Positions 12,980-21,544 of a stretch of 41,964 nucleotides of DNA are shown here, one piece after another (within the stretch, counting starts at the first letter, position 1; each line of letters begins with the position of its first letter). Source of the stretch: an uncultured archaeon (lineage in GTDB: Archaea > Iainarchaeota > Iainarchaeia > Iainarchaeales > 1-14-0-10-31-34). Both the position numbers and the translations under genes were made by a program. The notes under the pieces are model-generated. The model did not search any database. It had not been told where the DNA came from and saw only the letters and a list, made by a program, of their open reading frames with translations. The stretch is from assembly GCA_964608675.1 (NCBI GenBank), contig CAZSOZ010000007.1, positions 1 to 41,964 of the forward strand. The letters are read 5' to 3'.

Positions 12980-13657
12980 ATGCGTAGACCAAGAAATAGA
13001 TTTCGTGATATACCAAGAGAAGGCAGAAAAAGGCTTACTTTTAAATCCAAAAAAACATCTGGAACAAAAAAGCCTGCAAAAAAGTTTCCTTTTTTTCCTA
13101 AATCAGTACTTGAAGCAAAAATAAAGAAATCTCCAAATAACTCTGAATTATATTTGCTTCATTCTAAAGGAAATATTTCTACTTTTGCAATTACTTTGGG
13201 CGAAAAAATAATTAGCCAAGGAAGTTTGCTAAAAATTGCATCTGAAGTTTTAAGAAATAAAGCTCTTGCAAGGGAAAAAGTAGCAGAAATTTCAGGGTAT
13301 ACTTTGAATGATTTGCTTTCAATAGGAGATGTGCCTAAAGTGGGTTCTCAGGCAACAGGAAAAATTTCTGTTATAGAAAAATCAAACAAAAAAAATATTT
13401 CTCTGCAGGCAATCGCTTTTCCAAGCAAAATAAAAATTTCTGAAAGAACTAGACTTGATTTGAAAAGAACTTTTTTTAGAAGACTTGTTTCAATGCTTGA
13501 ACAAAAAAGCCAGTTTAAAGGAAAAAGCAGTCTTCAAGTTAAAATCAAAAAAAATGAAATCAGGTTAAGAACTTTTCTTGAACAAAAACTTGGTTTTAAA
13601 GAATTAACTAAAACAGAATTTGCTGACAGTTTTTTTGTAATGCATAAAAAAATTTAA
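12980..13657 (+). CDS. Hypothetical highly basic protein with a degenerate GNAT-like C-terminus
   Basis: 225-aa ORF fills the fusA-tuf gap; TTTAAAT about 25 nt upstream; C-terminal LQVKIKKNEIRLRTFLEQKLGFK resembles GNAT motif B (L-x-V...N...FY.K.GF). Confidence 0.75.
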   Translation: MRRPRNRFRDIPREGRKRLTFKSKKTSGTKKPAKKFPFFPKSVLEAKIKKSPNNSELYLLHSKGNISTFAITLGEKIISQGSLLKIASEVLRNKALAREKVAEISGYTLNDLLSIGDVPKVGSQATGKISVIEKSNKKNISLQAIAFPSKIKISERTRLDLKRTFFRRLVSMLEQKSQFKGKSSLQVKIKKNEIRLRTFLEQKLGFKELTKTEFADSFFVMHKKI

Positions 13658-15849
13658 TCAAAAAAGTATTCTGCTTTTTTTGGTTCTGGGTCCATTCCTT
13701 TTCTTTTTCTGATGTCTACTATTGTTTTGTGCTGTAATTCTCTTGGAAGCAGTTCATAGCCTGCGTATTCTGCTGTCCAGATTGCTCTTCCTTGTGTTGC
13801 TCCTCTTATTGCTGCACTAAATCCTATTAGTTCTTTTACTGGAGCTTTTCCTATAATGATTGTCTGGTCTCCTTCTGTTTTCATGTCATTTATTTGTGTT
13901 CTTCTTGCTCCAAGTTCTTTGCTTGCTGCTCCCATGAAGTCTTGAGGGACAGTAATAAACAGTGTTTGTTTTGGCTCCAATAAAATTGGGTCTGCTTGAA
14001 GCATGCATGCATAAATTCCTCTGGTTATTGCAGGAAGAACTTGTGCTGGCCCTCGATGTATTGCGTCTTCATGCAGTTTTGCGTCCTCAATTATTATTTT
14101 TACTCCTTGGCATTTTTCTTTTGCTAATGGGCCTTCATTTGTTGCGTCATTGAATGCCTGTATAATTAATTCTTTTACTTCAAATAATGCTTCAATTCCT
14201 TTTGTTGCATTTACTATATAGCAGTTGTTGTTTACTGCCCAGATTCTTTTTGCTTCATCTCGGTCTATTCCTATATCTATAAATTTTTCTATTATTTCTT
14301 TGTCTTTGTTTCTTATTTTTCCGCTTATTTTTGTTTCAATTAATTTTTCAAGAATTTCATCAGAAATTTTTTCCACATGCATATAAAATTTGTTGTGTTT
14401 GTTTGGGGTTTTTGCTTCATGTTTTGGCGGAGACTCTTTTGTTATTGTTTCTCTGTAAACAACTATTGGAGGGCTTACTGTTATAGGCACTTTGTGGTCG
14501 TGTTCAATTCTGTGTTGTGTTACTTCTAAGTGAAGTTCTCCCATTCCTGAAAGTAAATGTTCTCCTGTGTCTTGGTTTACTACTGCTTTAATATTTGGGT
14601 CTTCTTTTGTTATTTGTCTTATTACTTCAATTAATTTAGGCAGGTTTTTGGCTTCTTTTGCTTCAACTGAAACAGTCATTACTGGTTCAGCGTTTGACAT
14701 AAATGATTCAAATTCTTTCATGTCAACTGTTGAAATTGTTTCGCCTGCAAAAACTTCTTTTAATCCCACTAAGGCAGCAATGTTTCCTGCAGGAACTTCG
14801 CTTACTTGGACTCTGTCTGGACCCATATATAATCCTACTTGCTGTACTCCTATGTCTTTTTTTGAGCCAATTAATTTTATTTGAGTTCCTTTTTTTACTT
14901 TTCCTGAATAAATTCTTCCTGTGGCAACGTCTCCTGCATGAGGGTCTACGGTTACATCTATTATCATCATTGCTAGAGGACCGTTTGGATCGCATTCAAT
15001 CATTGATTTTCCTTCTTTGGTTTCGTTTTCTCCTATCCAGATTTTTGGAATCCTGTATTTTTGTGCAATTAATGGATTCGGCAAATGCTGGATTATTAAT
15101 TCAACTATTGCGCCGTATAAAGGGCTTCTTTTTGCAAGAGTTTTTTGGTCTTCGTTTTTGCAGTAATCATAAACGTCTTTGAATGTTATTCCTGTTGTTT
15201 TCATGTGCATGGAAGATATTGCCCAATTATAGTAAGCTGAACCAAATACAACAGAGCCATTTTCTACTTTTACCTGCCATTTTTCTTTGAATTGTTTTGG
15301 TGCATTTTTTTCAATTAATCTGTTTACTTGAACAATGGTTTTTACAAATCTTTCCTGCATTTGTTCTGCAGTTAATTGTAATTCATTTACAAGTCTGTCA
15401 ACTTTGTTGATAAATAATACAGGTTTTACGTTTTCTTTTAATGCCTGCCTTATAACTGTTTCTGTTTGAGGCATTACTCCTTCAACTGAATCAACTACTA
15501 ATATTACTCCGTCTACTGCTCTCATTGCTCTGATTACTTCTCCTCCAAAATCAATGTGCCCTGGAGTATCAATTATGTTAATTAAATAGTCTTTGTCTTT
15601 GTATTTTTGCACTATTGAAACATTTGCTGCATTGATTGTTATTCCTCTTTGTTGTTCTAATTCATAGTAGTCCATGAACTGCTGTTTTCCTGCGAGTTCT
15701 TCTGAAATTAATCCTGAAGCAGCAATTAAGTTGTCTGTCATTGTTGTTTTTCCGTGGTCAATATGAGCCACTACTCCTATGTTTCTGATGTTTTCTCTGT
15801 TGTTCATGAATTTTTCTGCGTGTCTTGCTACTTCTTCTCTTTTGCTCAT
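13654..15849 (-). CDS. fusA: Elongation factor 2 (aEF2)
   Basis: AHIDHGKTT, RGITI, DTPGH, NKVD, GMGELHLE; diphthamide loop HEDAIHRGPAQ intact. Confidence 0.99.
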   Translation of the reverse strand: MSKREEVARHAEKFMNNRENIRNIGVVAHIDHGKTTMTDNLIAASGLISEELAGKQQFMDYYELEQQRGITINAANVSIVQKYKDKDYLINIIDTPGHIDFGGEVIRAMRAVDGVILVVDSVEGVMPQTETVIRQALKENVKPVLFINKVDRLVNELQLTAEQMQERFVKTIVQVNRLIEKNAPKQFKEKWQVKVENGSVVFGSAYYNWAISSMHMKTTGITFKDVYDYCKNEDQKTLAKRSPLYGAIVELIIQHLPNPLIAQKYRIPKIWIGENETKEGKSMIECDPNGPLAMMIIDVTVDPHAGDVATGRIYSGKVKKGTQIKLIGSKKDIGVQQVGLYMGPDRVQVSEVPAGNIAALVGLKEVFAGETISTVDMKEFESFMSNAEPVMTVSVEAKEAKNLPKLIEVIRQITKEDPNIKAVVNQDTGEHLLSGMGELHLEVTQHRIEHDHKVPITVSPPIVVYRETITKESPPKHEAKTPNKHNKFYMHVEKISDEILEKLIETKISGKIRNKDKEIIEKFIDIGIDRDEAKRIWAVNNNCYIVNATKGIEALFEVKELIIQAFNDATNEGPLAKEKCQGVKIIIEDAKLHEDAIHRGPAQVLPAITRGIYACMLQADPILLEPKQTLFITVPQDFMGAASKELGARRTQINDMKTEGDQTIIIGKAPVKELIGFSAAIRGATQGRAIWTAEYAGYELLPRELQHKTIVDIRKRKGMDPEPKKAEYFFD

Positions 15850-15875: not shown

Positions 15876-16484
15876 TTATCTTGAACTTACTGCAATTCTT
15901 TCTACTTCATCTTTTCTTTTAACTGAAAAAGAATTTGAGTCGTTTTTTGAAGCCAGAATTAATTCTTTTGCAAGCATTTGTGACGCATCAACTTTTTTGT
16001 TGAATGAAGATGAAAATGCAGCTAACGCAATGTTTTTCAGGGATTCATCAATTCTTTTTAGTGGAGCTACATCCACTGACAAAGTGTATGCTATTCCTCC
16101 TTTTTTTATTCTTGTAATGTCTTCTCTTGGAGCAGCATTTTCTATTGCTTTAACTAATACTTGAAGAGGGTTTTGTTTTGTTTCATTTTCTATTATTGAA
16201 AATGCGTCTTCTACTATTCTCATTGCCTGTAGTTTTTTTCCGCAGCTTCCTCTTCCTCTTATGTATTTTCCTGAAAGTTTTCTTTTTCCTTGTCCTGATC
16301 TCATCAGCTTGTTTATAAGCCTTTCAATTATGTTAAGTTTTCCTTTTGAAAACCTTTTTCTCGTGTTTTTTCCGAATGTATGTGGAATGGTTTTGTCTTC
16401 AAATGCAATGTATTTTGCCAGACCTAAGTCTTCTATTTTTACATTTTCTGAATTCCATTTACCAAAAAGCAGTGTTTCATTCAT
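15876..16484 (-). CDS. rps7: 30S ribosomal protein uS7
   Basis: LFGKW, IIERLINKLM, NPLQVLVKAIENAAPRED, VDVAP, KDEVERIA motifs. Confidence 0.97.
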   Translation of the reverse strand: MNETLLFGKWNSENVKIEDLGLAKYIAFEDKTIPHTFGKNTRKRFSKGKLNIIERLINKLMRSGQGKRKLSGKYIRGRGSCGKKLQAMRIVEDAFSIIENETKQNPLQVLVKAIENAAPREDITRIKKGGIAYTLSVDVAPLKRIDESLKNIALAAFSSSFNKKVDASQMLAKELILASKNDSNSFSVKRKDEVERIAVSSR

Positions 16485-16489
16485 TTAAA

Positions 16490-16921
16490 TTACCTTTTTA
16501 CTTTTTCTTTTTTTCCTCTTCTGAGCATTTCTAATGACTGGTTGTTTACTTTTATTACTTTGAATTTTACTCCCCATAAATCTCCTTTTGCTCCTTTTTT
16601 TCTTCCGCCTCCGCCTTCTATTAAGACTTCGTCGTGTTCATCAATAAATTTAATTGCTCCGTCATATGGTGCTAATGCAGTTAATTGTTTTCCATTTTTT
16701 ATTAATTGTACTCTTACACATTTTCTTATTCCTGAGTTCGGTTGTCTTGCTGTCACTCCCCTTTTTTCCAGTACAATTCCTTTTGCTTGAGGGCTTCCTT
16801 CAAGTATGTCTTTTAATTTTTTCTTTTTTCTTCTGCTTCTGATTTTTTCTTTTGGATTCTTTTTTTTCCATTTTTTTCTGTTTTTTTCCTGGCTTCTTGC
16901 ACTAAATTCTCCTCTTGCCAT
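16490..16921 (-). CDS. rps12: 30S ribosomal protein uS12
   Basis: [38 protein letters not shown]; alternative start at 16927. Confidence 0.97.
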
Positions 16922-16952
16922 ATTCAATCACTTTTTTTAATTTATGTCCTTT

Positions 16953-17366
16953 TCATTTTATTTTTATGTCTTTTATTTCATAATTTCTTTTCATTAATTC
17001 TTTTATTTTTTTCAGTTTGTTTGTGTTTGTCATTATTTTTCTTTTGTTTTCTGAATCAAGATTCAAAACAAAAGTTTTTTTTTCGCCTTCTTTTTTTTCT
17101 GTTATTTCATTTATTTTTATTTCTTTTAAAGAATTTTTAATGAAATTTTCAGGTTTTTCTGTGAACCCGTAGATTTCAATGTTTTTCTTTAATTTTTGCT
17201 TTAATTTTTTTATTTTTTCTCCTTTTTTTCCTATTGCGTTTCCTACATCTTTTGAGTTAACTACAAACAAAATATTTTTTGGGGTTATTATACAGTCTCT
17301 TGCGGTTACTCCTGAAAAGTTTTGCAATGCATTTATGAGCAGAATTTCTTGGTTGGATATCTTCAT
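16953..17366 (-). CDS. nusA: Archaeal NusA (KH-domain transcription factor)
   Basis: SGVTARDCII, AIGKKGEKIKKL KH motif; canonical position between eL30 and uS12. Confidence 0.9.
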   Translation of the reverse strand: MKISNQEILLINALQNFSGVTARDCIITPKNILFVVNSKDVGNAIGKKGEKIKKLKQKLKKNIEIYGFTEKPENFIKNSLKEIKINEITEKKEGEKKTFVLNLDSENKRKIMTNTNKLKKIKELMKRNYEIKDIKIK

Positions 17367-17722
17367 TTCTTTTTCACTGTTTTTTTTGGTTTTCTTTTTT
17401 TGACTGTTTTCTTTTTTGTTTTCTTTTGGTCTTTTATTTCAAGTATTTTTGATTTTCCTTTGTTTAATACTGTCATCACTGAAACAGGGAACGGTTTTCC
17501 GCACACAGAACCCAGTTCAAGGGATGTTCCGGGAAATTCGTAAAATGGAATTTCACTTAATTTTGCATAATTCTCCAATCTTTCTTTTAAAAGTTTTTTT
17601 GTGTTGGAGCTTATAATAATTAATTCTCCGTTTCCCTTTAAAATGTTTTTCTCGGTTTGTTTTTCTCCAAAATTCACTTTTCCGGTGTCCACTGCTCTTC
17701 TGATTTCAATGTTTATATCCAT
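17363..17722 (-). CDS. rpl30e: 50S ribosomal protein eL30 with a Lys-rich C-terminal tail
   Basis: AVDTGKVNFG, YAKLSEIP, GTSLELGSVCGKPF, GKSKIL motifs. Confidence 0.96.
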   Translation of the reverse strand: MDINIEIRRAVDTGKVNFGEKQTEKNILKGNGELIIISSNTKKLLKERLENYAKLSEIPFYEFPGTSLELGSVCGKPFPVSVMTVLNKGKSKILEIKDQKKTKKKTVKKRKPKKTVKKK

Positions 17723-17727
17723 TTTAT

Positions 17728-21544
<3,817 letters not shown>

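Follow-up and report, generated by a model that had tools for sequence, protein, structure and literature searches.

A tryptophan occupies the position equivalent to Pro-90 of Escherichia coli S12 in the uS12 protein of an uncultured archaeon, and we found the same residue in nearly all Iainarchaeota genomes that we compared. The gene lies on a DNA stretch of 41,964 nucleotides, which was analysed as a whole and is referred to as the window. In the reading that we favor, to which we assign a probability of roughly 0.6 as a whole, this gene is the single, functional uS12 copy of an Iainarchaeota (DPANN) archaeon, and its tryptophan is not a private mutation. The residue would be ancient, shared by nearly the whole phylum and kept by selection, having been accommodated by its surroundings and then entrenched. 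An arginine in the other decoding-centre loop of the protein would be a separate, recurrent and near-neutral polymorphism, that is, an ordinary variant. The uS12 loops and the 16S rRNA bases C1054, G1405 and A1492/A1493 are textbook invariant parts of the ribosome. A whole phylum appears to live with a P90W-type change, and in its largest order the 'invariant' C1054 has in addition become U and 1405-1496 pairs as A-U. In Iainarchaeota, nature would thus have selected another way to build the decoding centre, and the phylum offers concrete combinations of uS12 with h44 and h34 for the study of epistasis.

The uS12 gene and its altered loops

The uS12 gene sits in the standard archaeal row rpoA''-eL30-nusA-uS12-uS7-EF2, whose members we assigned by Pfam. 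The features of this region are as follows:

13654..15849, minus strand: aEF-2 gene (Pfam GTP_EFTU, EFG_III, EFG_IV and EFG_C)
15876..16484, minus strand: uS7 gene, immediately downstream of uS12 (Pfam PF00177, E 3.4e-37)
16490..16921, minus strand: uS12 (rps12) coding sequence with its TAA stop, single copy (Pfam PF00164 Ribosom_S12_S23, E 1.5e-37)
16565..16585, minus strand: loop 2, G-D-L-W-G-V-K (usual G-D-I-P-G-V-R), codons GGA GAT TTA TGG GGA GTA AAA
16574..16576, minus strand: TGG codon, Trp118 (Trp116 from ATG), equivalent of E. coli P90 by sequence and BLASTP
16730..16750, minus strand: loop 1, A-R-Q-P-N-S-G (usual archaeal and eukaryotic A-K-Q-P-N-S-A), codons GCA AGA CAA CCG AAC TCA GGA
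16745..16747, minus strand: AGA codon, Arg61 (Arg59 from ATG), equivalent of E. coli K42 by sequence and BLASTP
16927..16931, minus strand: GTGAT, Shine-Dalgarno-like word 5 bases upstream of the ATG, putatively complementary to the 16S 3' end ...GAUCACCUCCU
16953..17366, minus strand: NusA-like KH-domain gene, immediately upstream of uS12 (Pfam KH_5, E 4.6e-12)
17363..17722, minus strand: eL30-type (L7Ae/L30e family) ribosomal protein gene (Pfam PF01248, E 3.7e-17)
17728..18930, minus strand: RNA polymerase subunit A''-type gene, Rpb1 domain 5 (Pfam PF04998, E 7.5e-49)

The open reading frame as called mechanically spans 16490-16927 and begins with a TTG at 16927 on the minus strand. The start is likely the ATG at 16921-16919, two codons inside this frame, because relatives begin with MARGEF or MANGEF and the GTGAT word lies 5 bases upstream. 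Counted from the ATG, the protein has 143 amino acids and the two residues are R59 and W116; they become R61 and W118 when counted from the TTG. Annotation pipelines may differ by two residues in their choice between the two starts (window 16919-16927).

The PF00164 match covers positions 5-110 of the 110 profile positions. The canonical loops KQPNSA and GD[IL]PGVR are absent from the protein, and the PNS core and the GD..GV frame are retained; the altered loops are best read as a motif variant and not as a failure of orthology. BLASTP against E. coli K-12 rpsL (E 6e-13) placed R61 opposite the first Lys of PKKPNSA (residue 43 with Met, corresponding to K42) and W118 opposite the Pro of DLPGVR (residue 91 with Met, corresponding to P90). 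A sequence-only reading of the window had located an Arg codon at 16745-16747 and a Trp codon at 16574-16576 and had equated them with K42 and P90; AGA and TGG are indeed read there on the minus strand, and the alignment agrees with both assignments. The best solved relatives are archaeal uS12 proteins (E about 1e-43). Among these, Pyrococcus uS12 (4v6u, 6swc and others) aligns without gaps (E 1.2e-43) and shares loop 1 as AKQPNSG, but has Pro, in GDIPGIRY, where the Iainarchaeota protein has Trp.

We consider refuted the reading that the Trp is an artefact, whether of sequencing, of assembly, of a pseudogene, or of an additional or contaminating uS12 copy. The open reading frame is intact inside a conserved operon, and the 1.2-Mb genome (94% complete) contains just one uS12 match. 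A second sample (run X2) yielded an 882-base contig that is identical over 16300-17044, which covers uS12 and speaks against the lack of read support that the sequence-only reading had listed as a refuting outcome. The same residue is found in 76 of 76 genomes of the same order. A Pro-to-Trp change requires at least two base changes, and the Trp is neither chance nor sequencing error, because it is kept in 89 distinct uS12 sequences with pairwise identities down to 51%. A tblastn search of plasmids returned no match and was uninformative.

Distribution of the Trp and Arg residues

Among named genome records, those closest to the window's genome are MAGs of 'Candidatus Iainarchaeum' and the Ca. 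Iainarchaeum andersonii genome obtained from a single cell, which share 68-80% identity with it. Trp is present at the P90 position in all 30 loci of the same genus, family and order, always as GDLWGV[KR], and the 76 Trp-bearing genomes of this order span 30 families. Two of these genomes (G007 and G054) fell outside the regular expression and were read by eye; the loop of G054 is GDLWGVSY. In family f30, a pattern match inside the uS12 coordinates gave G-S-Q-W-G-V-K in 8/8 genomes, and by pattern search the Gly-Ser-x-Trp form was found in f30, f33 and f34. In the other orders of the class, 11/12 genomes have Trp, with GDLWGVKY as loop 2 in f36 and GS[MQ]WG[VIM][KR] in f33, f34 and f37. A single Iainarchaeote is of the Pro type (G063, family f35, loop 2 GDIPTVKW). 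Its loop is itself odd, with P-T-V replacing P-G-V. Our phylum-level sample consists of genomes of this one class.

Pooling gave 158 uS12 rows, with 101 Trp, 50 Pro, 6 Ser and 1 Gly. The Trp rows comprise 82 genome rows and 19 named loci, eight of which duplicate a genome row; their 89 distinct sequences have a minimum pairwise identity of 51% and a median of 76%. Outside the phylum, Trp occurs in none of 57 archaeal uS12 rows (50 Pro, 6 Ser and 1 Gly). The Trp had been presented as a peculiarity of one genome, with the possibility left that it is widespread in archaea. Neither view matches these counts: the residue is a clean molecular signature of almost the whole phylum Iainarchaeota, and it occurs in none of the 57 archaeal rows beyond. 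The survey covered the best 150 of 1854 matching representatives at 50% identity (1.84 billion proteins) and 80 genome loci. Among the best 150, other Trp forms were found only in P0003 and P0018, two intein-bearing Trp-type proteins whose source organism is not given; GDIPGVR is present in 120/151 rows and KQPNSA in 125/151 rows of this survey of best representatives. In the papers that our literature searches reached on uS12 in DPANN and Iainarchaeota, on S12 P90W and on decoding-centre bases, we found no description of a natural Trp variant; those on P90W are both bacterial, and one listed for Iainarchaeota ribosomal proteins deals with hibernation factors.

Residues other than Pro and Trp occur at the same position. 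Ser is found in ANME-1/Methanophagales and in Altiarchaeota (including the Altiarchaeales locus L118) as well as in L100, Gly in L129 (one uncultured archaeon), and His in the intein-bearing protein P0078. We noted loci L101, L115, L110, L112, L118 and L129 and proteins P0004, P0020 and P0078 as lacking the Pro. As judged from these Ser, Gly and His forms in separate archaea, archaea have given up the 'universal' Pro on several occasions. In every non-Pro form the preceding residue is Leu (GDL[S/G/W]), and 45 of the 50 Pro rows have Ile there. Since the Ser-type archaea (ANME-1 and Altiarchaeota) encode their Ser by TCN codons, Pro (CCG) to Ser (TCG) to Trp (TGG) would be a path of single steps via a naturally viable state. 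Two of the archaeal-type uS12 loci stand under bacterial titles, L100 (Desulfobacteria MAG), whose loop GDLSGVRF is ANME-1-like, and L127 (Acutalibacteraceae bin); both are probably mis-binned archaeal contigs.

In a FastTree phylogeny of 28 16S sequences, a single gene with few taxa, (f34 + f37) is the sister group of (f35 + (f36 + main order)); the supports are 0.98 and 1.0. The Pro-type family f35 is thus nested inside Trp lineages, and either Trp dates from the origin of the phylum and f35 reverted to Pro, or it would have arisen twice.

Arg at the K42 position is found in 36 of the 76 same-order genomes and Lys in the other 40, and the split follows families. Arg is also present in 9/50 Pro-type rows (Geoglobus/Archaeoglobi, Thermoplasmatota and Mnemosynella). 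Because Lys accompanies Trp in 62/101 Trp rows, Arg appears not to be needed for Trp in Iainarchaeota. The sequence-only reading had treated the Arg as a notable re-tuning substitution and the change of PNSA to PNSG as distinctive. The first does not sit well with a residue that is polymorphic in the order and recurs in Archaeoglobi, Thermoplasmatota and others, nor the second with the same Ala-to-Gly change in Pro-type archaea such as Pyrococcus (AKQPNSG).

The GC content of rRNA tracks growth temperature. The genome has a GC content of 32.3%, and its complete 16S rRNA gene, located on another contig, of about 50% (0.48-0.52), which suggests that this is not the genome of a hyperthermophile. 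The corresponding substitution in RPS23/uS12, K60R, replaces the same Lys of KQPNSA; passages in PMC8570412 describe it as present only in thermophilic and hyperthermophilic archaea and as raising accuracy ('hyperaccuracy') in yeast, worms and flies. In contrast, its occurrence in 36/76 Iainarchaeales genomes, among them a genome of 32% GC with a 16S of ~50% GC, suggests that the Iainarchaeales data do not fit the word 'only'.

The 16S decoding site and possible accommodation of the Trp

We aligned 68 16S sequences with MAFFT: E. coli rrsB, which provides the numbering, the 16S of the window's genome, 53 further main-order and 7 other-order Iainarchaeota sequences, and 6 other archaea. The latter are the complete genes from 15 outgroup genomes, six of which yielded no 16S and three a partial one (G167, G170 and G174). 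All 68 sequences, the 54 of the main order among them, keep the monitoring bases G530, A1492 and A1493. The following changes were found in the main order:

C1054 to U, h34: 53/54 main-order 16S genes; the exception G036 keeps C1054
G1405-C1496 to A-U, h44: 53/54 main-order 16S genes; the exception G020 keeps G-C
A915 to U: 46/54 main-order 16S genes; 7 stay A (f30 and f31 genomes) and G101 has G
U13 to C: 54/54 main-order 16S genes
C1400 to U: 9/54 main-order 16S genes

The Rfam archaeal consensus marks G1405, C1496, A915 and C1054 in upper case as highly conserved positions, and at all four the 16S of the window's genome has another base. The orders of f34 and f37 have Trp, yet keep C1054 and G1405-C1496; G020 combines Trp with G1405-C1496, and G036 combines it with C1054. 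None of the listed rRNA changes co-distributes strictly with Trp. Of the earlier proposal that the 16S rRNA compensates for the uS12 substitutions, one part stands, as the same lineage is altered in h44 (1405-1496), in h34 (C1054U) and at 915/13; a strict tracking of Trp is not seen.

Two more specific ideas were rejected. The 1410-1490 pair is G-C in 60/60 16S genes of Trp-type Iainarchaeota, the single Pro-type genome having A-U, and G1410-C1490 is the only decoding-site feature common to all Trp-type 16S and absent from the Pro-type Iainarchaeote. As a specific compensator of Trp it fails, since G-C is the Rfam archaeal consensus and is also found in ANME-1. An enrichment of rRNA changes at the decoding site was dismissed as well: about 4 of the 12 order-wide changes (13, 149, 542, 1054, 1061, 1094, 1129, 1262, 1345, 1405, 1496 and 1528) are located there, which is too few, and they are confounded by shared descent.

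The 16S of this lineage is divergent in general, and that of the window's genome differs at 36/600 columns in which 8 outgroup sequences agree throughout. This divergence is what one would expect if the Trp reflected neutral drift in the fast-evolving ribosome of a small-population DPANN lineage, having no meaningful effect on decoding, being unrelated to the rRNA changes and becoming frozen later. The different distributions of Trp and rRNA changes, the Ser, Gly and His residues of ANME-1, Altiarchaeota and others, which indicate an archaeal site that tolerates change, and the one Pro-type lineage nested among Trp lineages point the same way. We nevertheless regard drift as unlikely. A single codon could be erased by any drift, and the Trp is invariant in all of its 89 distinct sequences; elsewhere, archaea and eukaryotes among the best 150 of 1854 representatives almost always have Pro; and the same replacement is conditionally lethal in Thermus (PMC3884664).

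This Thermus thermophilus rpsL allele (PMC3884664, citing Carr et al. 2005) likewise has Trp in place of the aligned Pro, in the loop contacting h44 beside A1492. It was made by site-directed mutagenesis and, when streptomycin is absent, is conditionally lethal. In Thermus S12, bulky replacements of P90, the engineered P90W included, result in streptomycin dependence (PMC3884664), in agreement with what the sequence-only reading had stated for bacteria. Excerpts of the same paper report that P90W was never recovered in genetic selections, as several base changes are needed; that it clashes with h44, moving the A1492 phosphate by 9.5 A, displacing C1409-G1491 and shifting 1410-1415; and that C1490U suppresses P90L, with no spontaneous suppressor found for P90W. 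K42 mutations are described there as able to suppress the streptomycin dependence caused by P90 mutations. Against this background, a natural, phylum-wide Trp is unexpected, because the engineered P90W is streptomycin-dependent in Thermus. The Iainarchaeota residue differs in being natural and fixed in a phylum, in an archaeal ribosome, within the loop GDLWGVK, together with G66 and G112 and with A1409-U1491 in h44. The protein does have the bulky side chain aligned to E. coli P90 that defines this class of alleles; as such it would act at most like a compensated one, since a free-living lineage cannot be drug-dependent.

Within uS12, Trp and Pro rows differ by A66G, R112G, I117L, R121K, E134M, V136R and V56R (158 pooled rows). 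Of the four changes located within or next to the two loops, three go to smaller side chains, which would fit making room for an indole. G66 and G112 are also found together with Pro in Pyrococcus. These co-substitutions are confounded by phylogeny and the rows are not independent, because the Trp rows all trace back to a single origin or to two.

The selected Trp of our favored reading may be accommodated as follows. The Trp would sit at the tip of the loop facing h44. In a standard ribosome it would clash with h44, distort A1492 and stall tRNA selection, as in Thermus P90W. In Iainarchaeota, the indole may be accommodated by the shrunken neighboring side chains and by the lineage's own h44 context. 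Leu117, the small residues at 66 and 112 and the A-U pair 1409-1491 would form this permissive local context, which was perhaps reached via Ser. The Trp would then have become entrenched by epistasis, with its indole packing permanently against the h44 backbone near 1490-1492. The net effect is likely a modest bias of the A site to the restrictive (slower, more accurate) side, its direction and size being extrapolated from bacteria. A measurable gain in accuracy is conceivable, and we would rather bet against it than on it. A re-tuned accuracy centre as such would agree with what genetics in bacteria and eukaryotes has taught about P90W, K42R and C1054U.

The C1054U change has a laboratory counterpart. 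In PMC9014874, C1054 is called invariant and is one of four bases touching the A-site tRNA; its text does not mention positions G1405, C1496 and A915. The E. coli ram mutant C1054U suppresses UGA mildly; it is restrictive when another misreading event is scored, and its proofreading of Phe-tRNA is somewhat hyperaccurate (PMC3964911). It represents the same change, at the A-site base packing on tRNA position 34, as in 53/54 main-order genes; it is a laboratory mutant with mild, context-dependent effects, whereas in Iainarchaeota the U is the wild type of an order. A recoding linked to U1054 was rejected: 497 long frames end with TAA (297), TGA (158) and TAG (42), so that all three stop codons are used and there is no sign of reassignment. 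As a speculative extension to which we give low odds, Iainarchaeales may be a natural 'restrictive allele plus suppressors', in which U1054, A1405-U1496, C13/U915 and the small uS12 neighbors made the Trp viable and then indispensable. If so, the phylum would provide a ready-made epistasis map around A1492/A1493, out of reach of bacterial mutant hunts because Pro-to-Trp needs two base changes. The decoding centre would have a different speed-accuracy set-point and possibly an intrinsic insensitivity to aminoglycoside-type compounds.

Such insensitivity could also have been the selected trait itself. The altered sites would then line aminoglycoside-type and streptothricin-type pockets as an adaptation to natural ribosome-targeting antibiotics. 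The altered set comprises the K42-equivalent Arg, the P90-equivalent Trp, 915/13, G1405 and C1054, and we take positions 13, 915 and 1490 to belong to the streptomycin pocket. According to published abstracts, aminoglycoside-resistance methyltransferases have G1405 as their target base. A paper that mentions C1054 30 times reports the 30S subunit as the site of action of streptothricin F (PMC10187937), and S12 substitutions at the decoding-site interface generally yield streptomycin resistance (PMC3884664). Against a common drug selection speak the different nodes at which the changes arose and the polymorphic Arg, and we consider this alternative very improbable.

Derived loops and inserted elements in relatives

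A second, more derived loop set has KQPHSG[LI][IAM]K as loop 1 (Asn to His, with the following Arg lost) and GS[QM]W as loop 2 (Asp to Ser). It is found at L061-L070 (f33, f34 and f37) and L191-L192 (f24), and is known from loop 2 alone in f30 genomes. The f34/f37 derived loops come with 16S C518G (530 loop) in 5/5 cases, and with C1400U/A (16S loci L165-L169). His and Ser also occur together with a retained Pro in P0005 and P0052 (GSIPGVRY), and L088 is an exception that has PHSG with GD. The two loops thus seem to change together in this Asn/Asp to His/Ser pair.

An in-frame intein of ~510 residues interrupts uS12 between K69 and C70, three residues past the PNSG loop. Its carriers are loci L195-L198 (G004, G002, G046 and G039), genomes G133, G134, G162 and G111, and proteins P0003, P0018, P0023, P0057 and P0078; P0003 has a Pfam Intein_splicing match. 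The intein is present in two species of the same genus as the window's genome, and in both Trp-type and Pro-type uS12. In L014 (G011), the uS12 match carries one in-frame TAA, probably in an N-terminal extension ahead of the true start.

The 16S gene of the window's genome (G000 contig C2:36755-38240, L071) has a compensatory change of C1059-G1198 to U-A in h34, shared by 8/14 main-order genomes examined. Around 1390-1406 and 1492-1510, where commonly used primers bind, its sequence is not that of E. coli, and 'universal' 16S probe and primer sites (1390-1406, 1492-1510 and about 1050) mismatch this lineage. Several relatives have long 16S genes (G064 2240, G051 2237, G004 2233, G008 1675 and G117 1550 bases; usually ~1490), and these 60 to 750 extra bases suggest inserted elements such as introns or homing-endonuclease genes.
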